Source: Candidatus Saccharimonadota bacterium (GTDB taxonomy: Bacteria > Patescibacteriota > Gracilibacteria > BD1-5 > UBA6164). From it: a stretch of 32,000 bases of DNA. The notes below the pieces were generated by a model. It made no database searches. It was not told where the DNA came from and saw only the letters and a list, made by a program, of their open reading frames with translations. This document shows, piece by piece, positions 7,385-19,051 of the stretch (the stretch's first letter is position 1; the number at the start of each line of letters is the position of its first letter). The DNA lies in NCBI GenBank assembly GCA_963677765.1, contig OY782392.1:300001-332000 (forward strand), written 5' to 3'. The translations under genes were made by a program, and so were the position numbers.

Positions 7385-7518
7385 AGTACTTTCTATGTCA
7401 AAGACAGTGGGCACAAAATAAGACCTACCGAGATAATAGAGGAATAGATTTTAAATTAGATATAAAGTTTAAAAAACTCTAATCCTTTTTCTTTGACTTA
7501 AAGAAAAAGGATTTTTTA
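7385..7518 (+). promoter_or_regulatory. rplJ 5' leader with terminator-like hairpin (L10-leader-type attenuator candidate)
   Basis: About 180-nt untranslated leader. It contains ...caaagacagtgggcacaaaataagacctaccgag... and a strong hairpin aatcctttttcttt / aagaaaaaggatt (7481-7513) followed by a T-run, ending about 45 nt before the rplJ ATG. Confidence 0.55.
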
Positions 7519-7560
7519 ATACTAGAAAGTAATAGTTTATATTGATAATAAAAAACAACA

Positions 7561-8133
7561 ATGGCTGTTTCAAAACAAAAAAAAGTTGAGATATTTAACG
7601 AATTAGTTGAAAAATTCAAATCTGCTGAATCAATTGGTTTTTCATCTACAAGTGCACTTAGTGTTGAAGATTTTGCAAAACTAAGAACTTCTTTAAGAGA
7701 AGTAGGATCTACTTATACTTTAGCTAAAAAAACTATTATAGTAAAAGCTATAAAAGAAGCTAGAGATATTGAAATTAACTTATCAGACTTAGAAGGTCAA
7801 ATCTGAGTAGTATGTTCTAATGAAGATGCTGTAGCTGGTTTAGGTAAAGTTAACGATTTCATGAAAGCTATAAATAAAGATGCTGATAAAATGGAATGGG
7901 CATTATCTATATTTGAAGGAGAATTAAAAGACAAAGAAGAAACAAAAATAATTGCTTCTATGCCTTCAAGAGAAACTTTACTTGGAAGATTGGTTGGTTC
8001 TATGAAATCTCCTATTTCTGGAATGGCAAGATTCTTTGATGCTGCTGCTAAAGAACTTGAAACTACTGGAAAAGCAAAAGTTAGTGAATTAGAAGGAAAA
8101 AAAGAAGAAACTTCTGAAGAAGAAGCTAAATAA
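7561..8133 (+). CDS. rplJ: 50S ribosomal protein L10
   Basis: The two track ORFs (7561-7806 and 7861-8133) are in the same frame and are joined through a single TGA=Gly at 7804-7806. The 190-aa product has an L10-like sequence and an acidic C-terminal tail. Confidence 0.9.
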
Positions 8134-8140
8134 TTGATAT

Positions 8141-8280
8141 TTGGTTCATTGATTCCCTATTTTTAGGGAGTCATTAACTAGTTATCAATAAAATAACTAG
8201 AATAGTTCATTGTAGAGCTTGATTCAGTGTCTGTTAAGAACTGAATCTAACGGATATTGAACTAAAATTCTACAATGAAA
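8141..8280 (+). other. Structured rplJ-rplL intergenic RNA element (three nested or adjacent hairpins)
   Basis: Hairpins are gattcccta/tagggagtc (8151-8172) and ctagttat/ataactag (8178-8200). A long-range stem ttcattgtaga/tctacaatgaa (8206-8216 with 8269-8279) encloses gattcagt/actgaatc (8221-8247). Confidence 0.5.
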
Positions 8281-8320
8281 TTTTAAAAAATTTTATTTTA
8301 TATTTTTAATTTTTGCAAAA

Positions 8321-8695
8321 ATGGCTGAATTAACAAAAAATGCACAACAAATTATGGACTTAGTTAAAGAATTAACTATAGTTGAATTAAATGACTTAGT
8401 TACTGCTATGGAAGAAGAATTTGGTGTTAGTGCTGCTGCTCCTGTTATGGTTGCTGGTGCTGGTGCTGAAGGTGGAGCTGATGAAAAATCAAGCTTTAAC
8501 GTTGAATTAACTTCTGCTGGTGCTTCTAAAATCGGTGTAATTAAAGTTATAAGAGAAATAACTGGATTAGGATTAAAAGAAGCTAAAGATATTGCTGATA
8601 ACGGTGGTATGATTAAAGAAGGAGCTTCTAAAGACGAAGCTGAAGAAATTAAAGCTAAATTAGAAGAAGCTGGTGCTTCTATCGAATTAAAATAA
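8321..8695 (+). CDS. rplL: 50S ribosomal protein L7/L12
   Basis: 124 aa: ...[23 protein letters not shown]...[27 protein letters not shown]...[14 protein letters not shown]. No TGA codons. Confidence 0.95.
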
Positions 8696-8702
8696 TTCTA
8701 TT

Positions 8703-8738
8703 AAAAAAAGATAAACTTATATAAGTTTATCTTTTTTT
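8703..8738 (+). terminator. rplL intrinsic terminator
   Basis: Perfect palindrome aaagataaactta-ta-taagtttatcttt followed by a T-run. Confidence 0.8.
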
Positions 8739-8862
8739 CTTTTAAATGTTTTTTCTTAACAAAAACTTAACAAAAACTATATTTTTTATAGCATAAAAAT
8801 TGACATAGACTAACATTTTTATAAAATGTTTGAGCTTATAATTATATAATAATTTGATACAT

Positions 8863-9285
8863 ATGAAATATTTATATTCACTAGTATTATTAGTATTCTT
8901 AGCTTCTTGTACAAATGGAGCATGAGTGACTAATGAAGAAACTGTAGATAATGAAAATACTTCTACAGAAGTAACAAACTCTGAAATTGATGAAGCTATG
9001 GAAGAAACTTTTTCAGAAGAAGAATCTAATGAAGGTCTAACTATGTTAGATGCTACATATACTAACCCTCAAGCAGAAATTGATATGAAAATTTACTATA
9101 GCTTAAACGAAGCTAATGAAATTGAAGAAATTTATGCTGAAGCTAGTAATTATGATATGAGTGCATTTAATGAAAATATCCAATATTTAGTAGGTAAAAC
9201 TATGGAAGAAGCAGAAAATGTTTATGTTTCTGGTAGTTCTCTTACTAGTGAAGCTTTCACAAGTGCTATAAAAAATAACATGTAA
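8863..9285 (+). CDS. Acidic lipoprotein with FMN_bind-like C-terminal domain (putative ApbE substrate)
   Basis: MKYLYSLVLLVFLASCTNGAG... has a signal peptide and lipobox LASC, and is joined through one TGA to the track ORF at 8926. The C-terminus ...IQYLVGKTMEEAENVYVSGSSLTSEAFTSAIKNNM resembles the end of FMN_bind domains (..VD.VSGAT.TS.A...A..). Confidence 0.6.
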
Positions 9286-9289
9286 TTAT

Positions 9290-10126
9290 ATGAAAAAATT
9301 TTCTAGAGAATTAATGTGATCAGTATTGAATATAACAATTTATGATAATAATATAGATTTAGAAATTATAGAAAATTGCTTTTTTGAGACTGAAAAATTT
9401 GAAAAAAAATACTCTAGATTTTTAGAAGATAGTTATTTAAGCTTGTTAAATAAGAATAAAAGTTCTCAAGAAATACCTTGAGAACTTTTATCTATTTTAA
9501 AGCTATCAAATAAAGTTTCACAAATTAGCAAATGATATTTTGATATTACTATACTTCCCTTTTTGGAAAATATCTGATATTGAATCAATAAAGAAGAAAT
9601 GAAGGAAGTATATTGATATAAAAATATAGTCATAAATGACAATACTATCAAGTTGGAAAATTGAGTATCAATAGATATTTGATCTGTATGAAAATGATAC
9701 ATTGTAGATAAAATATATAATATTCTTAATGAAAAATACAATGACTTTGTTATAGATTTTTGATGAGATATAAGAATAAAATGAAAACAAAAAATTTATT
9801 TAGAAGACCCCTTACAACTAAGTAAAAACATATGATATATTGAGTTAGAAAATAGCTCAATAGCATCATCATCTTCTAACAGAAGAAAAACAAAAAAATG
9901 ATGACATTTAATTAACCCCAAAAAAAATATAACAGATGATAAATTAGCAGTATATACTATGCATAAATTATCTAGTTTTTCTGATATATTATCAACTGCA
10001 TTATATGTTAGCCCTATAGAAGTTGCTTTAGATATAGTAAAAAAATCTAAATGACTTGAAGCTATGATTATAATGAAAAATTGAAAAATATATAAAACTA
10101 ATTGATTTAATATTAAAAATATTTAA
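9290..10126 (+). CDS. apbE: ApbE-family FAD:protein FMN transferase (no recognisable signal peptide)
   Basis: 278 aa with TGA=Gly: MKKFSRELMGSVLNITIY...SRFLEDSYLSLLN...SKGYFDITILPFLENIGYG...SIDIGSVGKGYIVDKI...VIDFGGDIRIKG...SSSSNRRKTKKGGHLINPKK...FSDILSTALYV. This matches the ApbE motif series. The start is 4 nt after the lipoprotein stop. Confidence 0.85.
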
Positions 10127-10128
10127 AA

Positions 10129-11631
10129 ATGATAAAAGAAGTAAAAGTAATTCCCTGATGTATTAGTTGTAGAAACTGTGAAAATGTTTGTCCTTCAGTT
10201 TTTAAAGTAAACCCAAAGTCAAAAGTAATTACTGATCAGTATGAATGAAAAGAATCAGAAATTTTACAAGCTGAAGCTATGTGTCCTGTTAATGTTATAA
10301 AAGTAAAACAAGCTGCTGGTTCAGTAAAAATTTCATTCAAAGATGCTACTTTAGTTGAAAAAAATTACCTAACACCAGATACTTTAGAATTAAAATTTAA
10401 TACTAAAAATTTTAAGTTTAAACCTGGTCAATATATTTCTTTACAAGGAAATGATTCTCTATGAAATTTTAGTCGTTCTTATTCAGTTGCAAAGTGAGAT
10501 GATAAGCATTTTACACTAAATATAAAACTTGAAAAAAAATGAAGAGGTTCTACTTTTCTTAAAAATTTAAAAATATGAAAGAGTATAAAATTTTTATGAG
10601 CTATATGAGCTTTTTACTTACAAAATAATAACAAACCAAAAGTATTAATAGCTACTTGAACATGATTAGCTCCTATGGTAGCAATGCTTGATAAAATTGA
10701 TAAAGATGTACAAAAAACTGTTATTTTTTGAGTGAGATATGAAAAAGATGTATATTATAAAGAATTACTTGAAAGTTATCCTAATACTAAAGTAATTATA
10801 AAAGTATCTAGACCAGAAGAGAAAACTATATATAGCAAGTGAAGAGTTACTGATGAAGTAAAAAATATATCAAAAGAATCTGAAGTATATATTTGTTGAA
10901 ATCCAGAAATGGTTGAGCATGTAAGAGAATGATTAGCTGAAAATTGACATGATGAAAAACTTATATTCAATGAAAGCTTTACTATATCTAGAAAATACCC
11001 TTGAAAATGCAAGGATATATTTTTAAATTGAAATATTCCTCATTTAAATAAATTATCTTGGGCAGTTATAATATTTTCTTTAACATTAATACCTTTTAGC
11101 TGGATTTATAATAAAATAAATAATAATCTATACTGAGACTTTTTATTCATAAACAACTATATGGGATTTATGTATGACCTTAGTTGGTGGTCAGTAGTAT
11201 TTGTAATGGCGATTAGACCTCTTGCAGACTTGTTTCCTAAAATTGGTATACTAAGTAAATTAGTTACTTTGAGAAAAGCTTTTTGAATACTATCTGCTTC
11301 AATTATTGTATCAAATTTTGTATGAAGTTCTGTATTTAATATAAATAAATTTTTAACTTATTTTACTATAGCTTGATGGGCTCTATATATGCCTTTGATA
11401 ACTAAATTAAGTGAAATATCTGCATTAATATTATTATTAACATCTAATAAATTATCTCAAAGAACTCTTTGAACTTATTGGAAAAAAATACAAAGATTAA
11501 GTTATATATACTTCATAACATGATGAATAATTGCTTGACTATACTTCCCTATGAAAGTATATCCTGTAATGGCTATAGTTATAATACTATGGTTTGCTGC
11601 TTTAATAAAATCATTAATAAAAAAAGACTAA
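10129..11631 (+). CDS. Fusion protein: ferredoxin (4Fe-4S) + FNR-type FAD/NAD(P)H oxidoreductase + C-terminal MsrQ/YedZ-like (ferric-reductase-type) membrane domain
   Basis: 500 aa, uninterrupted with TGA=Gly. N-terminus has PGCISCRNCENVCP...MCP. The FNR motifs are RSYS, GRGSTFL, IATGTGLAPM and YICGNPEMV. The C-terminal ~200 aa form about 6 TM helices containing AIRPLADL...LRKAFGILSAS and LTSNKLSQRTLGTYWKKIQRLSYIYF, similar to MsrQ. Confidence 0.8.
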
Positions 11632-11714: not shown

Positions 11715-12683
11715 ATGATTAATAAGCCAAATATTGTTATATCAAAATGTATTAATATAGACAATTGTAGATATAACGGAGATAGAGTTAATGATGATTT
11801 TTTAAACAAATTATGAAAACATGTTAATTTTATTGCTGTATGTCCTGAAGTTGCAATATGATTATGAACACCTAGAATGCCTGTAAAGCTATATTGAAAT
11901 CCTGATAGAAATATAGTAAAAATGTATCAAAGTAGCAAAAAAATTGACTTAACAGATAAAATGAATGATTTTTCTAATAAGTTTTTAAATAAATTAGAGA
12001 ATATAGACTGATTTGTAATGAAAAATAGATCTCCTAGTTGTTGAATAAAAGATGTAAAAGTATATCCTGACTGAGAATCTAAAATAGCTCATGGAAAATC
12101 TAGCTGATTATTTGTAAAAAATATAGAAAATATATTTGAAAATTATCCTTTAGAAGATGAGTGAAGATTAAAAAACTTTAGAATAAGAGAGTCTTTTCTT
12201 ACAAAAATATTTTGTTTAGCAAAATTAAGATGAGTTTTTGAATCATGAAAAATAAGTGAACTACAGAATTTTCAAGCTGAAAATAAATATTTATTTATGG
12301 CTTATTCACCAAAATATCAGGTAGAATTATGAAGAATAATAGCAAGTTATGATAAAACAAATTTTGAAGAAATAAAAAAATACTATCATGAAACTATATT
12401 AAAATTATTTAATAGTAAAAATGATACTTGAAAAATAATAAATGCCTTTACTCATATTTTTTGATATTTTAAAAACTCATGTTCAAAAGAAGAAAAAGAG
12501 TTTTTCCTAGAAACACTTGATCTATATAAAGAATCTAGAATACCAAGTAGTACAATAATAAATATATTAAATATATGGTCAATTAGAGATAAACAAGAAT
12601 ATATATTAAAACAAACAATTTTAAACCCCTACCCTAAAGACTTAATGGAATTAAGTGATAGTTGAAAACTATTAAAATTATAA
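11715..12683 (+). CDS. ybgA: YbgA-like protein (DUF523/TudS-like domain fused to DUF1722)
   Basis: 322 aa: MINKPNIVISKCINIDNCRYNGDRVND...FIAVCPEVAIGLGTPRMPVKL...NRSPSCGIKDVKVY... followed by a DUF1722-like helical half. E. coli ybgA lies upstream of phr, which fits this neighbourhood. Confidence 0.8.
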
Positions 12684-12705
12684 TTTATTTTTTTATTATA
12701 AGATT

Positions 12706-13122
12706 ATGGAAATTATAAAAATATTATGAGTATATTTCATATGATTTTTAACTTTATTAATACTAGATTATTTATGGTTATGAATAGTAACTAAAGATTT
12801 TATAATTAGAGAATTTTGAAGCCTTATAACAGTAGAAGAAAATTGAAGTATAAAGATAAATCTATTAGCTTGAATAATAGCTTGGTTAATAATATCTGCT
12901 ATGATAGTTACTTTTGTAACTCTAAAATACGATAATATATGAGATATTATATTATATTGAGCACTTTTAGGTTTTATGAGTTATGCTATGTATGACTTAA
13001 CAAATCTAACTTTTTTAAATAATTATTCATTAAAATTTACAATTGTAGATATAGCATGGTGAACATTTGTATGAACAATGATAGCTGTAAATAGTTTTTA
13101 CTTTTATAACTATATAAAATAA
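12706..13122 (+). CDS. DUF2177-family small membrane protein
   Basis: 138 aa with about 4 TM helices: MEIIKILGVYFIGFLTLLILDYLWLGIVTKDFIIREFG...YAMYDLTNLTFLNNYS. The family assignment is from memory of its typical sequence and of its co-occurrence with DUF1295 and photolyase genes. Confidence 0.6.
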
Positions 13123-13868
13123 TGGAAATATTAATTTTTATATTCATATTATATATTATATTATTTTTAATAAGTATAAAAATTAAAGATAACTCTATTT
13201 TAGATATATTTTGGTCATTATGATTCGTAATACAAGCTATTTATCTATATATAATAAATCAAGACTTTTCATTGATAAAAAATATAACAATTTTAATTAT
13301 ATTAATATGGTGAATTAGGCTTAGTTATTATATACTAAAAAGAAAGCTAAAGGATAAATCAGAAGATCCTAGATATGCTGAATGGAGAAAAAAATGGAAA
13401 TATTTTTATACTAGAAGCTTTTTTCAAGTTTTTATGTTACAAATATTGTTAATGTTTATTATTTCAACTCCTATATATATAATTTTTTCTTGAAAAGATA
13501 TAAACTTTTATGTTTTTATAATATGAATAACTATATCTATAATATGATTATTATTTGAAATAATATCAGATTCTCAAGTTAAAAAATACATAAAAGAAAA
13601 CTGAAAAAACAACAAAGTTTTTACTTGATGATTATATAAGTACTCTAGAAACCCTAATTACTTTTGAGAAAGTACTTTTTGGTTATGAATAGCTATAATA
13701 TCTAGTTCTATTAGCATATATGGTTTTATTTGATATATAGTAATAACTACTTTATTGCTATTTGTATCATGAGTACCAATGAAAGAAAAAAGGCAATCAA
13801 AAAAAGAAAACTGGAATCAATACAAAGAAAAAACAAGCGTATTTATACCTTGGTTCCCTAAAAAATAA
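13122..13868 (+). CDS. DUF1295 (steroid 5-alpha-reductase-like) membrane protein
   Basis: 248 aa. The ATG overlaps the previous TAA by 1 nt. Contains ...SEDPRYAEWRKKW...ISDSQVKKY...GGLYKYSRNPNYFGESTFWLG..., the NPNYFGE signature of the family. Confidence 0.75.
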
Positions 13869-14090
13869 AAATACCTAGTATATTTTAAATTTTATAAATA
13901 AGTAATAAAAAACGTTAATTTTTAAAACATTCCACTTCGTAAATAAAATATATAAATTTTCAAAAACTTGCCCAATCAAAGATTGGACTTCAAACAGTTT
14001 GAAAATTTATATATTTTATATTTACTTGTTACATTTAAAAATTAAATTTTTTTTATTATCTTATTTAAAAATTAAATACTAGGTATTTTT
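13866..14090. repeat. About 225-bp imperfect palindrome (long inverted repeat) between convergent genes
   Basis: The outer 15 nt, aaaaatacctagtat / atactaggtattttt, are perfectly complementary. An inner perfect 20-nt pair lies at 13945-13964 and 13998-14017. A central mini-hairpin is ccaatc-aaa-gattgg (13972-13986). The arms are about 105 nt and mostly complementary by hand alignment. Confidence 0.8.
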
Positions 14091-15548
14091 ATTTAAGAAA
14101 TTTTCTTTTAATTTTTTAACAGCTTCTATATCAATCTTTTCAAGATTTTTTACAACAAATGGTTGTCTAGTTTTTTTGAAAGTATCAATATTTTCAGATA
14201 CAAAAGACCAATACAAATAATTAAAAGGACAAGAATCACTTTCATACTTATTTTTAACATTATATTCACAATTTGTGCAAAAGTCTGACATTTTGTTAAT
14301 ATAATTTCAACTAGAAATATATGGTTTTGTAGCTAATCTTCATCAATCAGAAAATTGACTCATTCATAATACATTTGGTGAAACTACCCATTCAAAAGCA
14401 TCGCTATATTTTTCAAAGAACCACTTATTAATTTCTAAAGGGGTTACTCAAGTTAATAAGCAATAATTTCATATAACCATAAGTCTTTCTATATGATGTC
14501 AATAACTATTTTCTAAAACTCTTTTAATACTAGTTTTTAAACAATTCATTTTACAACTATCTAAATTTTTTCACCAAAAATATACTGGAAGAGTATTAGA
14601 ATTGTTAAAATAATTATTTTTATAAATATCATCTTTATAAAAATGAAAAAAATGATACATATATTCTCTCCATCAAATAACTTGTCTAATAAATCATTCT
14701 TTGTTATTTATTTCTGTATTTTGATTTTCTATTACAGAAACTACTTCTCTTGGTGACAATAATCAAAAATTTATAGCTGTAGATAAATTAGAATGATAAA
14801 CATAATCATCATTTTCATACATAGCATCCTCCAGTTTTCAAAAGTTTGGAAGATTATTTTTTACAAAATAATTCAATAAAATTATAGACTGTTCCCTATT
14901 TGTAGGATAACTTATAAATCAATCAAAATTATAAAATTTTTTTGCTTCTATTAATCATCTTGTTTCATCTAATATAAGTTGATTAACTGATTTGTGATTT
15001 TTATCAAATCATCTATTATCTTTATCATAATTCCATTTTCATCATATTGGATTATTTCAGTCCATTAAAATATCAAACTTTTTTCTCATATATCTATAAA
15101 AAGTCTCCATAACAGGAGGCTTTTTATATTTTGATAAAAACTCTTTATGACTTAAATAAAAACTTTGATTATCTTCTAAAAAAATTAAATCAATATTATT
15201 TGAAGTTAATTTATCTTTTATCTTTAAAAAATTTTCATAAACATAGTTTTCTACAGGTTTTATAACATAAACTTTTGAGAATCATCATTTATTACAAAAA
15301 TCTAAAATTTCATTGTAATAACTATTTGAGACCTTAAACTCTCATGAAAATCCTTTATTATTTAATTCTTCTATAAAATTATATCACATTGCATAATCAA
15401 ATATTTTTGATTTTATATTCAAACTTAAATTTTCATCATTAAATCTTATATTTCAATTATGATGAATATATAAAAAATACTTTGATAAACTTGTATCAAA
15501 ATAGTTTATATTTATTTGATTATATAATATTAAAAAAAAGCTCTTCAT
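14079..15548 (-). CDS. FeS-BCP type cryptochrome/photolyase ((6-4) photolyase PhrB/CryB-like, iron-sulfur cluster containing)
   Basis: 489 aa: ...GWREYMYHFF...SYGHHIERLMVIGNYCLL...[55 protein letters not shown].... The C-terminal Cys pattern and the PFN.LYW motif are typical of the Fe-S bacterial cryptochrome/photolyase group. TAG at 14079-14081. Confidence 0.85.
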
Positions 15549-15871
15549 TATTTTTTTATTAATTGATTTAATTTATTTTTAGCATCATCTAAATTAGATT
15601 CATAAACAATGATATCATCCTGTAAAATAATTCATTTATCATTATTTTTTAAAAATACTATATTATCCCATCATTTAAAATCACAAACCTTATACCATAT
15701 ATTTAAAAGATTTTCTCTATCTTTAGAGTCTATTTGTAAATATTTATTTTTTAAAGCTAAGTTATACTTTTCTCTTTCATAAGGTCTTAATCTATGTGAT
15801 ATACTTCTAGATCAAATATTAATTCAAGATTTTTTTCATCTAGTTAAATTATCAATATGTTCAAGTTTCAT
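15548..15871 (-). CDS. Hypothetical 107-aa protein translationally coupled to the FeS-BCP gene
   Basis: MKLEHIDNLTRGKKSGINIGSRSISHRLRPYEREKYNLALKNKYLQIDSKDRENLLNIWYKVCDFKGWDNIVFLKNNDKG...*. Its TAA overlaps the downstream ATG by 1 nt (TAATG). No family recognised. Confidence 0.55.
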
Positions 15872-16014: not shown

Positions 16015-17502
16015 ATGAAAAAAGATATACAACTTATTTGGTTTAAAAAAAATCTAAGAATAAAAGACAACGAAGTATTTAATTATTTAGATAGAGATAC
16101 TGAAACAGTCTGATTTTATTTAATAGAAGATGAAATAGTAAGACAAAGAGATTTTTCATACTTTCATTTAAAATTTATTATTGAAAGTCTAATAAACTTA
16201 GAAAAAAATTTAAAAAAACTAAATATAAAACTAATTATAAAAAAATCTAATTTTGAGGATTTTATAATAAATATAGAAAAAGAGTTCAATATAAAAATAA
16301 TAGTTTCAACTCAAGAAACTTGAAATATAGCATCATATAACAGAGATTTAAGAGTTATTAATTTTCTAAAAAATGAATCTATTGATTTTTTAGAAGTGGA
16401 AAATAATTGAGTAGTTAGATGATTAAAAAATAGAGATAACTGGACAAAAATTTGGAATAAAAGAATGTGAAGTGATATTTTTTTAGAAAAGAAATTTAAA
16501 AAATTTAATAATTTTGAGAAAGAGCTAATTCAATCTAAAATAATTCTAGAAAAATATAAAGAAAAAACAAAGCATTTAAAAACTCAAGAATGATGAGAAG
16601 ATAATGCAGTAAAAATTCTAGATAGTTTTTTAGATAATAGGTGTAAAAATTATTCCTATAACATATGAAAACCTTATGAATCAGAACACAGTTGCTCTAG
16701 ATTATCACCATATATAACATATTGAAATATATCAATAAAGTATATTTATCAAAAATCCATAAAAAAAATATTAGAATTAAAGACTGATTTAGATGAAAAT
16801 AATCTCAAAAAAATCAAACAAATAAACTTTTTTTTAGCTAGAATTCATTGGCAATCTCACTTTATCCAAAAACTTGAGTCTCAAGTAGATATTGAGTATA
16901 AAAATTTGAATAAAGAATTTGATAAAATTAGAAATAAATCTGATATAGAAATAATAAATAATTTTTTTAATGCAAAAACTGGTATACCATATTGTGATGC
17001 CGCAATTAAATGTTTAAAAACAACTTGATGGATAAATTTTAGAACAAGAGCATGTTTAGTAAGCTATATATGTAATACAATGATGCAACCATGGCAATCT
17101 ATTTGAAAAAGACTTGCATGCTTATTTACAGATTATGAACCATGAATTCATTATTCACAGTTACAAATGCAATCCTGAACTACAGGAATAAATACCATAA
17201 GAATTTATAATCCAATAAAACAGTCAAAAGAAAAAGATCCTCAATGAAAATTTATAAAAAAATGGATACCAGAATTAAAAGAAATTGATATAAAATATAT
17301 ACATGAACCATGGCTTAGTGATAAAAAAATTGAATGATATAGTAATAAAATTGATATAGAAGAGTTAAACAAAAAAGCAAAAGAAGTATTATGGTCTACA
17401 AAAAAAGAAATAACTAAAGATAAAAAAAATAAAATAATAAAAAAGCATGCTAGTAGAAAAAAAATAAATAATAAAAACAAAAAGCAACTAACAATTTTTT
17501 AA
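16015..17502 (+). CDS. Cryptochrome/photolyase-family protein, divergent subfamily, with lysine-rich C-terminal tail
   Basis: 495 aa: MKKDIQLIWFKKNLRIKDNEVF...SRLSPYITYGNIS...FLARIHWQSHFIQKLE...GIPYCDAAIKCLKTTGWINFRTRACLVSY...[38 protein letters not shown]. The tail is KKEITKDKKNKIIKKHASRKKINNKNKKQ. Confidence 0.8.
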
Positions 17503-17645: not shown

Positions 17646-17731
17646 TTGATATTAGAACTAAAAAAAATATACTATAATTAGTAGACGGATAAAGCTCTCG
17701 CCAATTTGTTTTATCCTATAAAAATAAAAAC

Positions 17732-19051
17732 ATGTACAAAAAATCTATTTTTTGGTTTAGACAAGATTTAAGAACATATGATAATGTTTGACTTTATAAT
17801 GCTGTAAAAAATTCAGAAAAATTATTAGTTATATTTATACTAGATAAAAATATAATAAATGATTTTTTATGATTAAACGATAAAAAATTCTGATTTATAA
17901 GAGAAGCTTTGGAAAGATTGGATTCTGAGATAAAAAGTTTATGATGAGAATGATTAAAAGTTTTTTATGATAAACCTGAAACCTTAATTCCTGAACTAAC
18001 TAAAAAATACAATATAAATGCAGTATTTACTAACAGATCATACTGAAATTATTGAAAAAAAAGAGATGAAAGCATTAAAAATACTTTATCTAAAAGTAAT
18101 ATTGAATTTTTAAGTTATAAGGATTACTTACTAGTAGAACCATGGGAAATAGAACAAAGAAAGGTATTTACACCATTTTATAAACTATGGCAAAAGATAG
18201 ATTTTGATACTAATGAGTACAAAATAACTGATAAAATAGACTCAATAAAAATAGAAGAAAATAATAAGGCAAAAGATTATATTTCTATAGAAAAACATCC
18301 TTATTTTACAATGGATTTTTGAGAAAAAAGACTGGAAAAATACATTACAACTGATTATGATTTATATAGAAATGACTTAGATAAAGACTGAACATCAAAA
18401 CTATCACCATATCTTAGATTTTGAATATTTTCTGTAAGACAAATATATAATTTAGCAAAAAATATTAACCAACATTTTGTTTCAGAAATGGCTTGGAGAG
18501 AATTTTGGCAACATATTGATTACTATTTCCCTGAAACTAAAAAAATAGAATTTCAAGAAAATAAAAGACATATAAAATGGAGACATGATGAATACTTATT
18601 TGAAAAATGGTGTAATTGAGAAACTTGATATCCTGTTGTTGATGCTGCAATGAAACAATTAGTAGAAACCAATTGGATGCACTGAAGAGCTCGTATGATA
18701 GTTTCTAGTTTTCTAACAAAAGATTTACTTATAGATTGGAGATGGTGAGAAAAGTTTTTTAAAAAACATTTACTAGATTATGATGAAAATGTAAATTATT
18801 GAAACTGGCAATGGTGAGCATCTGTATGAGCTGATCCAAAGCCATTACGTATATTTAATCCTATACTTCAATCACAAAAATTTGATAGCCAAGCTAAGTT
18901 TATAAAAAAATATATACCTGAACTAATAAACCAAAATACAAAAGCTATCCATGACCCAATAGATAATGAATTAGATTATACTAGAATAATAGTTAATCAT
19001 AAAGAGGCTCAAAGAGAAACTAGATTAGTTTATAAATGAGAAAAAGACTAA
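17732..19051 (+). CDS. phr: Deoxyribodipyrimidine photolyase (class I-like or Cry-DASH-like CPF member)
   Basis: 439 aa: MYKKSIFWFRQDLRTYDNVGLYNA...TSKLSPYLRFGIFSVRQ...MAWREFWQHI...[37 protein letters not shown]...[31 protein letters not shown]. Confidence 0.88.

Follow-up and report, generated by a model that had tools for sequence, protein, structure and literature searches.

A heme-ligand-free, ApbE-linked branch of FRD-type membrane proteins in Gracilibacteria and other Patescibacteria

The subject of this analysis is a gene at 10129..11631 (+) in a 32,000-nucleotide stretch of contig OY782392.1 (the whole stretch is called the window below) from a bacterium of the Gracilibacteria, together with the operon in which it lies. 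Under genetic code 25, the gene encodes a protein of 500 aa. It contains 25 in-frame UGA codons and needs UGA to be read as Gly for its frame to stay open; a listing of open reading frames (ORFs) under table 11 splits the gene, and code 25 or code 4 restores the full frame. The window as a whole (G+C of about 22%) yields only short ORFs under table 11; once UGA is a sense codon, ORFs of 100 aa or more add up to 13,244 aa instead of 2,277, a roughly six-fold gain in coding content. Close homologues at NCBI from Candidatus Gracilibacteria have Gly at the UGA positions, for example in the GTG NAD-binding motif, and many other database copies have Trp there, being code-4 translations; this marks the host as a code-25 bacterium of the Gracilibacteria type. 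The target protein begins with a single-cluster [4Fe-4S]/[3Fe-4S] ferredoxin domain, Fer4_13 (10159..10305, +; aa 11-59, Pfam E 2.7e-10), followed by a ferredoxin-NADP reductase (FNR)-like module at 10345..10926 (+), which is made up of FAD_binding_6 (aa 73-163, Pfam E 3.3e-10) and NAD_binding_1 (aa 173-266, E 4.5e-18), and ends in an FRD-like six-helix membrane domain (11032..11628, +; aa 302-500). At E ≤ 1e-10, 114 homologues were found, about 90 of which are full-length (~500 aa) with identical architecture. Two genes on the same strand precede the target gene: one for an ApbE-family flavin transferase of 278 aa (9290..10126, +; Pfam PF02424 over its full length, E 2.2e-41), whose stop lies 2 nt before the target start, and one for a small lipoprotein of 140 aa (8863..9285, +) with the lipobox LASC and the C-terminal motif VSGSSLTSEAFTSAIK, in which S123-S126 correspond to nt 9229-9240. 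An initial annotation of 11040-11631, which is the C-terminal part of the gene (aa ~305-500 plus the stop), had described an MsrQ-like membrane domain lacking the heme-ligating histidines, and this domain is the main concern here.

No Pfam domain was found in aa 290-500 of the target, and likewise none of the NCBIfam models matched. The fold was approached through structure proxies, namely P0095, a correctly translated orthologue with 65% identity, and P0066, a family member consisting of the transmembrane (TM) domain only. The ColabFold/AF2 model of P0095 (pLDDT 94, pTM 0.76) shows six long helices behind the reductase (TM1 306-330, TM2 344-368, TM3 382-403, TM4 421-438, TM5 449/458-472 and TM6 474-498), and its numbering equals that of the window protein at the family-invariant residues R363, P364, R382, L435 and S439. 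Basic residues are concentrated in the loops 363-383 and 440-456 and in the C-terminal tail, which by the positive-inside rule predicts an N-in topology with the reductase, both loops and the C-terminus in the cytoplasm. When a full-length homologue model was submitted to Foldseek, cytochrome b5 reductase, NqrF and BenC-type reductases were returned at E ~1e-17; here the FNR module swamps the matches, and the TM-only model was needed for the membrane domain. With the P0066 model (pLDDT 94.6), the top five PDB matches were STEAP1, STEAP2, STEAP1 and the NOX5 TM domain (probability 0.99-1.00, TMq 0.52-0.61, E-values modest at 5e-3 to 0.2), with NOX2 and SpNOX next. The six-TM fold with the TM2-TM5 core common to STEAP and NOX is thus found both in the AF2 models of homologues (pLDDT 94-95) and by Foldseek.

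At the sequence level, the target protein has no match to PF01794 at E ≤ 1, and a PDB sequence-profile search with the domain gave no match at E ≤ 10. A direct hhalign comparison with an enterobacterial-only MsrQ profile reached 37% probability over 33 columns; this profile is shallow, as the homologues found were all at least 77% identical and the 25 used at least 82%. An exhaustive profile search at E ≤ 1e-3 defined a family of 443 clusters at 50% identity, including distant relatives with His, and through these a two-step chain could be built: the family matches its His-containing relatives with 100% probability (E 8e-43, 194 columns), and the latter match E. coli MsrQ with 95.2% probability (E 2.5e-8, 152 columns). 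In addition, PF01794 is matched by 25 of 30 canonical-His relatives (best E 3.8e-10) and, weakly, by 14 of 87 family members (best E 1.5e-4). Taken together, the Foldseek ranking, the profile chain and the PF01794 matches of the relatives establish the relationship to MsrQ, though not directly. The homology claimed in the initial annotation is therefore borne out; the profile alignment proposed there as a check fails with PF01794 and with MsrQ directly and succeeds with MsrQ through intermediates. We consider it very probable that this is an FRD-fold domain of the YedZ/STEAP type which has kept its flavin site and lost its heme ligands.

FRD-fold proteins (NOX, FRE, STEAP and MsrQ) are heme-dependent transmembrane electron carriers, and their His ligands are their most conserved residues. 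The target protein has four His in all (127, 264, 274 and 305), and the peptides quoted in the initial annotation are present in it, including IPHLNK with H305 (11041..11043, +), which is indeed the only His in the last ~200 residues; it stands just before TM1 and is not conserved. Profile alignments place N396 in the column of MsrQ H91, Q455 in that of H151 and I468 in that of H164. The spacing agrees with these assignments: the TM3 ligand column follows the TM3 Arg by 14 residues in the target, MsrQ and STEAP4, and the TM5 ligand column (I468/H164) follows Q455/H151 by 13 in the target and MsrQ. In MsrQ, the heme ligands are His91 and His164, which superpose on the STEAP ligands, and His151 is no heme ligand but part of the FMN pocket (PMC12525009). 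Of the three ligand columns named previously, that of N396 was placed correctly, Q455 belongs to the flavin-site column, and L471/Y472 lie 3-4 residues off the true column at I468. The conclusion drawn from them still holds, in that N396 and I468 in the ligand columns preclude a bis-His heme at the canonical site. The outer-heme His pair (NOX2 H115/H222, MsrQ H91/H164, STEAP4 H304/H397) is absent from the target and from all 126 sequences of the class to which it belongs, described next.

Using the columns 396, 426, 429 and 468, we sorted 302 aligned domains into three classes, which hold 269 of them; the other 33 fall in none. The canonical single-heme state is seen in class A (n=54), in which H396 and H468 are found in 100% and positions 426 and 429 are hydrophobic. 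The members of class B (n=89) are stand-alone proteins of ~200 aa with F396, Y468 in 96% and an invariant H426-x-x-D429 on TM4 (Asp 84% and Glu 16% at 429), and 38% of them have H353 on TM2. Class C (n=126), which includes the target and consists mostly of Fer4-FNR fusions, has N, I or A at 396 (11314..11316, +, in the target; also the column of STEAP4 H304, and H in 54/54 of class A) and I, V or L at 468 (11530..11532, +). On TM4, class C carries a polar cluster of its own, with R426 in 94% (K in 6%, including the target), S428 in 90%, E429 in 99% and T431 in 90% (S in 9%), and W353 is found in 90%. The target has K426-L-S428-E429-I-S431 (11404..11421, +), 13 residues above S439, so that, as judged from the sequence, position 426 is at heme-ligand depth, 13 residues above the cytoplasmic S439. 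Intermediates between the classes are seen, for example H396 together with R426, E429 and Y468. From its invariant H426 and its Y468, the sister CPR (candidate phyla radiation) clade of class B may still bind heme, which leaves the fit with missing heme biosynthesis in CPR bacteria, seen in the initial annotation, tentative at most. Among 80 GTDB species-representative loci retrieved with a class-B-led query, all were Patescibacteria/CPR except a few metagenome-assembled genomes labelled otherwise; almost all of these loci are class B, with labels such as Moranbacteria, Paceibacteria, Nomurabacteria, Kaiserbacteria and similar.

The absence of His as such carries little weight. At the 0.81% His content of the window proteins, the chance of zero His in 195 residues is P~0.2, which makes it unremarkable. 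The significance lies in which columns have changed: two that hold His in all 54 canonical relatives (100%) carry other residues in 126 class-C sequences, 62 of which have no His anywhere in the domain. The family has 12 invariant and about 20 near-invariant columns, and a membrane-embedded Arg/Lys-Glu pair kept at 99-100% counts against a decaying domain. The initial annotation had offered a degenerate or purely anchoring domain among its options, and the conservation of the TM4 R/K-x-S-E-x-T cluster at 90-100% in 126 sequences disfavours it.

While the outer site differs from class to class, the residues of the inner flavin site are common to all. First, R382-K383 at the cytoplasmic start of TM3 (11272..11277, +) correspond to MsrQ R77-R78 and STEAP4 R290-K291, which contact the flavin phosphate and isoalloxazine (PMC12525009, PMC6194020); R382 is conserved at 98-100% and K/R at 383 at 90% or more in all three classes. 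Second, L435 and T438-S439-N440 at the cytoplasmic end of TM4 (11431..11448, +), invariant or nearly so in all classes, include the equivalents of MsrQ L131 and S135 in the flavin pocket (PMC12525009). Third, W451-K452-K-I-Q455 (11479..11493, +) contains the equivalents of MsrQ W147 and H151, and the Gln is the STEAP state, being the flavin contact Q383 in STEAP4 (PMC12525009, PMC6194020, PMC3591440); W451 is conserved at 99-100% and Q455 at 97, 100 and 87% in classes C, B and A, respectively. All six pocket residues (R382, K383, L435, S439, W451 and Q455) are therefore present in the target, are 87-100% conserved among the 269 classified sequences and match the MsrQ FMN-site residues R77, R78, L131, S135, W147 and H151 one-to-one. 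Three of them (R382, K383 and Q455) also match FAD-contacting residues of STEAP4 (R290, K291 and Q383), a protein whose heme is held by H304 and H397 (PMC6194020). STEAP proteins in general have Gln at the MsrQ His151 position and Lys at the Arg78 position (PMC12525009). The YedZ/STEAP clade signature, an Arg in TM3 replacing the first heme His together with Gln/His in TM5 (Zhang et al. 2013, PMC3591440), is found in the target as R382 and Q455. Since the pocket residues are conserved in every branch, the inner flavin site looks intact and only the outer heme site altered.

In the operon, the window ApbE has neither a signal peptide nor a lipobox; it begins 8 residues before the MG[TS] motif, and an in-frame stop lies 6 codons upstream of its Met. 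The ApbE proteins of the family loci (~65 GTDB loci checked) likewise start ~10 residues before MG[TCS] and have no signal peptide or lipobox. Cytoplasmic ApbEs are known from Klebsiella (PMC12052999). The lipoprotein motif VSGSSLTSEAFTSAIK aligns residue by residue with the E. coli RsxG flavinylation site FTGATITPRAVVNAVK, and Pfam FMN_bind aligns to the lipoprotein at E 0.093, its profile positions 7-74 (of 77) covering aa 76-138. Upstream of ApbE in L002, L172 and L174 stand orthologous lipoproteins with the pattern [SA]G[AGS]S-[LI]-T-[ST]xAFxxA[LI]K, and that of L174 has a precomputed weak FMN_bind match. Overall, the motif lipoprotein is present in four of five Gracilibacteria loci, and the order lipoprotein-ApbE-target is found in L002, L172 and L174 but not in L173. 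ApbE also lies directly upstream in L002, L003, L004, L007, L172 and L174.

A total of 170 fetched loci were annotated with purpose-built hidden Markov models, and ApbE was counted where 1 kb or more of flanking sequence was available on both sides. It was present in 79 of 91 class B and C loci compared with 4 of 14 in class A (Fisher p 1.4e-5, without correction for phylogeny); the metagenome scan for class A was run with a 9-sequence subset, as the first class-A alignment was too diverse. The usual class-B operon has the form rubredoxin ... ApbE-FRD-like-FNR, which is an equivalent electron chain in separate genes, with rubredoxin replacing the ferredoxin domain. A canonical [ST]G[AGS][ST] motif was found in none of the FRD-like, FNR and rubredoxin proteins of ~170 loci. 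Two possible ApbE sites within the membrane domain were also considered and dropped: 'LSAS' on TM3, because S391 is not conserved in class C, and the TSN motif, because it is equally conserved in ApbE-free class A.

From these data we propose that electrons would pass from NAD(P)H to the FAD of the FNR module, from there to the Fe-S cluster of Fer4_13 and then to a flavin at the inner TM site, all within one polypeptide. ApbE would most likely supply or attach flavin mononucleotide (FMN) for the membrane system, and the acceptor outside the membrane would, in Gracilibacteria, most likely be the small lipoprotein encoded just upstream of ApbE. The outer leaflet would then be crossed without a His-ligated heme, with the lipoprotein's FMN reached in the last step. 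As a heme with the canonical His ligation is impossible, some other redox group would be required at the remodelled site for the outer step. The TM4 cluster R/K426-S428-E429-T431 may hold or dock such a non-heme group, most plausibly a second flavin, e.g. the covalent FMN of the lipoprotein. A second flavin is the simplest candidate, since flavins and their ribityl-phosphate are typically contacted by Arg/Lys, Ser, Thr and Glu, and an ApbE is at hand to provide covalent FMN. Among the options listed in the initial annotation, that of a flavin cofactor becomes the most attractive in view of the operon context, with ApbE and an FMN_bind-like lipoprotein. For this overall relay from NAD(P)H to an external flavoprotein, we judge the chances to be about even.

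We also put forward, much more tentatively, a specific form of the relay in which the passage through the STEAP/MsrQ fold is made by flavins only, and ApbE-installed FMN replaces the outer heme b. The FMN would be held by R/K426-S428-E429-T431, and it could be either the covalent flavin of the lipoprotein docked in the vacated pocket or an FMN on the membrane protein at a non-canonical site. If this is true, heme-auxotrophic ultra-small bacteria could need nothing more than flavins and a single Fe-S cluster to carry NAD(P)H electrons through the membrane, and as a corollary the lipoprotein is flavinylated in the cytoplasm before export, or ApbE has a new substrate class. Trp/Tyr hopping was considered as an outer path and rejected, by our own reasoning, on redox-potential grounds.

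Several points weigh against the proposed relay. Every cofactor assignment in it is made by homology, and the lining of an outward-open old heme cavity by residues 426 and 429 is an assumption of the proposal. By Pfam, the assignment of the lipoprotein to FMN_bind is weak (E 0.09). The class-C loci L005 and L173 have no ApbE nearby, and ApbE also adjoins four canonical-His relatives, for which reason a strict rule that ApbE replaces heme was rejected. No protein with the [ST]G[AGS][ST] motif was found in class-B operons, and ApbE may therefore serve another role there. Finally, the topologies do not match, since ApbE has no signal peptide, whereas the one candidate substrate that carries the motif is an exported lipoprotein; export may come only after flavinylation, or ApbE may have another substrate.

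The alternative that survives best is that no transmembrane transfer takes place at all. The domain would then be an anchor that keeps the inner flavin site, the protein would be an NAD(P)H:flavin/Fe-S reductase with a cytoplasmic or lipid-soluble acceptor, and the pair R/K426-E429 would be a structural plug in the cavity left by the heme. We regard this as unlikely, though several points favour it: the domain lacks heme ligands as well as any Cys or His for another metal centre, a cytoplasmic ApbE fits chemistry on the inner side, class-B operons show no external partner, and MsrQ binds a quinone besides FMN (PMC12525009). Such an anchor does not account for the flavinylation-motif lipoprotein in the operon of four of five Gracilibacteria loci, and W353, W417, S428 and T431 in the outer leaflet or loop are conserved at ~90%, which goes beyond what a plug requires. 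CPR bacteria, moreover, are generally not known to have quinones.

The TM4 cluster could also be a site for a metal ion or for protons, at which a metal such as iron is reduced from the inner flavin or ion passage is gated, as would accord with descent from ferric reductases. STEAP and FRE are metalloreductases, the class-B set H426-D429-Y468(-H353) resembles a metal-binding set, Fur stands beside relatives in L008 (class A) and L173 (class C, with ZnuABC), and a P-type ATPase adjoins L009. We find this reading improbable, however. With a single carboxylate among Arg/Lys, Ser and Thr, class C is poorly equipped to bind a metal, the window has no metal transporter near the gene, and Fur adjacency is limited to 2 of ~170 loci.

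A third possibility is that heme b is retained, having been scavenged from a host, and is bound by unconventional axial ligands (K426, M360 or a Tyr), the domain being an otherwise normal single-heme cytochrome whose ligands have migrated. Both Lys and Met are able to serve as heme ligands. In class B, the invariant His426 and Tyr468 at heme depth would suggest such a migration, and M360 is conserved at 89-97% in classes B and C (48% in A). However, 94% of class C have Arg at 426, which is no heme ligand, and the Lys of the target is the minority state; position 468 is aliphatic in class C, M360 lies 3 residues above the cytoplasmic R363 and thus at the level of the flavin rather than the heme, and 62 of 126 class-C domains have no His at all. 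We consider retained heme highly improbable. That the domain is a decaying, functionless remnant kept as a membrane tether is hardly credible, for although it has no Pfam or NCBIfam match and has lost the canonical ligands, its family of 443 clusters has 12 invariant and ~20 near-invariant columns, the flavin-site signature is intact, the operon partners are conserved, and the fold is predicted with very high confidence.

Among the known systems closest to the target is MsrQ (YedZ), the membrane flavocytochrome of the E. coli MsrPQ system. Its six-TM FRD fold and cytoplasmic FMN pocket are matched by the target, and the electrons that it passes towards a partner on the extracytoplasmic side come from a flavin reductase system in the cytoplasm. 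However, MsrQ holds one heme b through H91/H164 and has His at 151, where the target has N396, I468 and Gln455. MsrQ also stands alone, has the molybdoenzyme MsrP as its partner and receives its electrons from Fre, whereas the target domain is fused behind ferredoxin and FNR modules and is paired with ApbE and a small lipoprotein, with no msrP nearby; no msrP or other molybdoenzyme gene was found among 11 window neighbours scanned with Pfam or in the Pfam annotations of 13 homologue loci. STEAP1-4 (PDB 8ucd, 7tai, 6y9b) are the best structural matches (TMq up to 0.61) and have in common with the target the R-K (TM3) and Gln (TM5) signature. In STEAP, the isoalloxazine inserts in the inner half of the TM domain (STEAP4, PMC6194020). 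Unlike the target, STEAP proteins have the strictly conserved heme pair H304/H397, an F420-type NADPH domain, for which the target has FNR and Fe-S modules instead, and a eukaryotic trimeric form. NOX and FRE proteins (NOX5 TM 5o0t, SpNOX 8qt6) combine an FRD membrane domain with an FNR-type FAD/NAD(P)H dehydrogenase in one polypeptide, as the target does, but they have four His and two hemes, the dehydrogenase after the TM domain, no Fe-S domain and no inner flavin pocket; the target has none of the four His, and its FNR module is N-terminal. Na+-NQR/RNF and the two-subunit 'NQR/RNF-like' systems have an NqrF-type FNR and Fe-S input, ApbE-installed FMNs, a heme-free membrane passage and an outside FMN_bind subunit. 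Their membrane subunits (NqrB/RnfD, NqrD/E) are unrelated in fold to the target, and we infer a resemblance in mechanism only.

A further comparison is with the 'MsrQ-like' flavinylation clusters (Meheust et al. 2021, PMC8238504), in which apbE is accompanied by a gene for an FMN-binding domain and by one for an FRD-type membrane protein with a fused NAD-binding domain. They were proposed to carry NAD(P)H electrons to extracytosolic flavoproteins and occur mainly in Actinobacteria (PMC8238504). The target cluster has the apbE, but the PF01794 membrane protein with predicted heme sites is not found in it; its ApbE has no signal peptide, and its lipoprotein has a lipobox and an SGSS-LTS motif matching RsxG, with FMN_bind at only E 0.093. 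Moreover, the reductase and a ferredoxin domain are N-terminal in the target, and the hosts are CPR bacteria. The 2021 census counted extracytosolic flavinylation by signal-peptide-bearing ApbE and FMN-binding proteins and defined 'MsrQ-like' by PF01794, and CPR bacteria were strikingly under-represented in it (PMC8238504). As the operon described here fails both the PF01794 and the signal-peptide criteria, that census would have missed it. A full-text literature search for Gracilibacteria or Patescibacteria together with ApbE or flavinylation found nothing.

The target thus stands for a heme-ligand-free, ApbE-linked FRD branch that is invisible to current annotation, and it is a whole family rather than one gene. 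This family keeps the flavin half of the fold, remodels the heme half into a new conserved polar site, and goes together with ApbE, FNR and a small carrier protein (Fe-S or rubredoxin). If electrons still move outward through it, heme-poor and quinone-poor symbiotic bacteria would have a route to power extracytoplasmic redox chemistry, and ApbE biology would come to include an enzyme that has no signal peptide and works for a membrane system. The domain is covered by no Pfam or NCBIfam model, and its code-25 genes are widely deposited as code-4 products with Trp for Gly, or truncated. For example, P0093 (92% identical, 6.4% Trp) is a code-4 product with Trp at every UGA, and P0001 and P0043 are truncated code-11 fragments (sets P0001-P0021 and P0093-P0197 were checked). 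Such mistranslated copies distort conservation analyses, and the mistranslation probably hides the family from automated annotation.

Other arrangements of the same modules are found within the family. Fer4 may be joined directly to the TM domain without FNR, or the TM domain may be followed by a C-terminal Fer4; TM-rubredoxin-FNR fusions and the gene order FRD-like-rubredoxin-FNR-ApbE also occur (examples of these alternative architectures are P0004 with 260 aa, P0395/L010, P0199-P0203 and L102/L104/L110/L129). What accompanies the membrane domain throughout is therefore a small carrier of the Fe-S or rubredoxin type.

In the window, the lipoprotein-ApbE-target cluster is immediately preceded by the genes for ribosomal proteins L31, L10 and L7/L12 (6957-8695), and the order of the ribosomal genes and the cluster is kept in the Gracilibacteria locus L002. 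The target gene is followed by a DUF523/DUF1722 gene (YbgA-like, '2-thiouracil desulfurase') and by a membrane pair of DUF2177 and DUF1295 (steroid-5-alpha-reductase-like), together at 11715-13868. A DUF2177/DUF1295 pair also flanks a class-B operon in an unrelated CPR contig (L007, 1024-2208), and a partial DUF2177 match lies at a contig edge upstream of another (L108, 3-236). Within 8 kb downstream, there are three photolyase-family genes, one DPRP and two DNA_photolyase/FAD_binding_7, at 14079-15572 (-), 16015-17502 (+) and 17693-19051 (+). A photolyase gene is directly downstream of the orthologue in L002 as well (7491-8825). The position of the operon next to a cluster for flavoproteins and photo-damage repair may hint at a stress-related role.

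Two further neighbours were seen at related loci. Fur adjoins the canonical-His relative in L008 (688-1104), and Fur with a ZnuABC-type metal uptake operon adjoins the ApbE-free class-C relative in L173 (336-3373), so that a link to metal homeostasis is possible in some lineages. Just upstream of ApbE, a membrane-anchored coiled-coil protein rich in Ala, Gln, Glu and Lys is encoded in L003 (4637-5056, -), L004 (3548-4171) and L007 (3377-3826, -), which are loci from Moranbacteria, Peregrinibacteria and Paceibacteria; in L003 and L007 its gene is on the strand opposite to ApbE. The protein has no Pfam match and ends in a tail rich in Ser, Lys and Arg (...SRKSRAS, ...SKKSSAS and ...TNTRTS).

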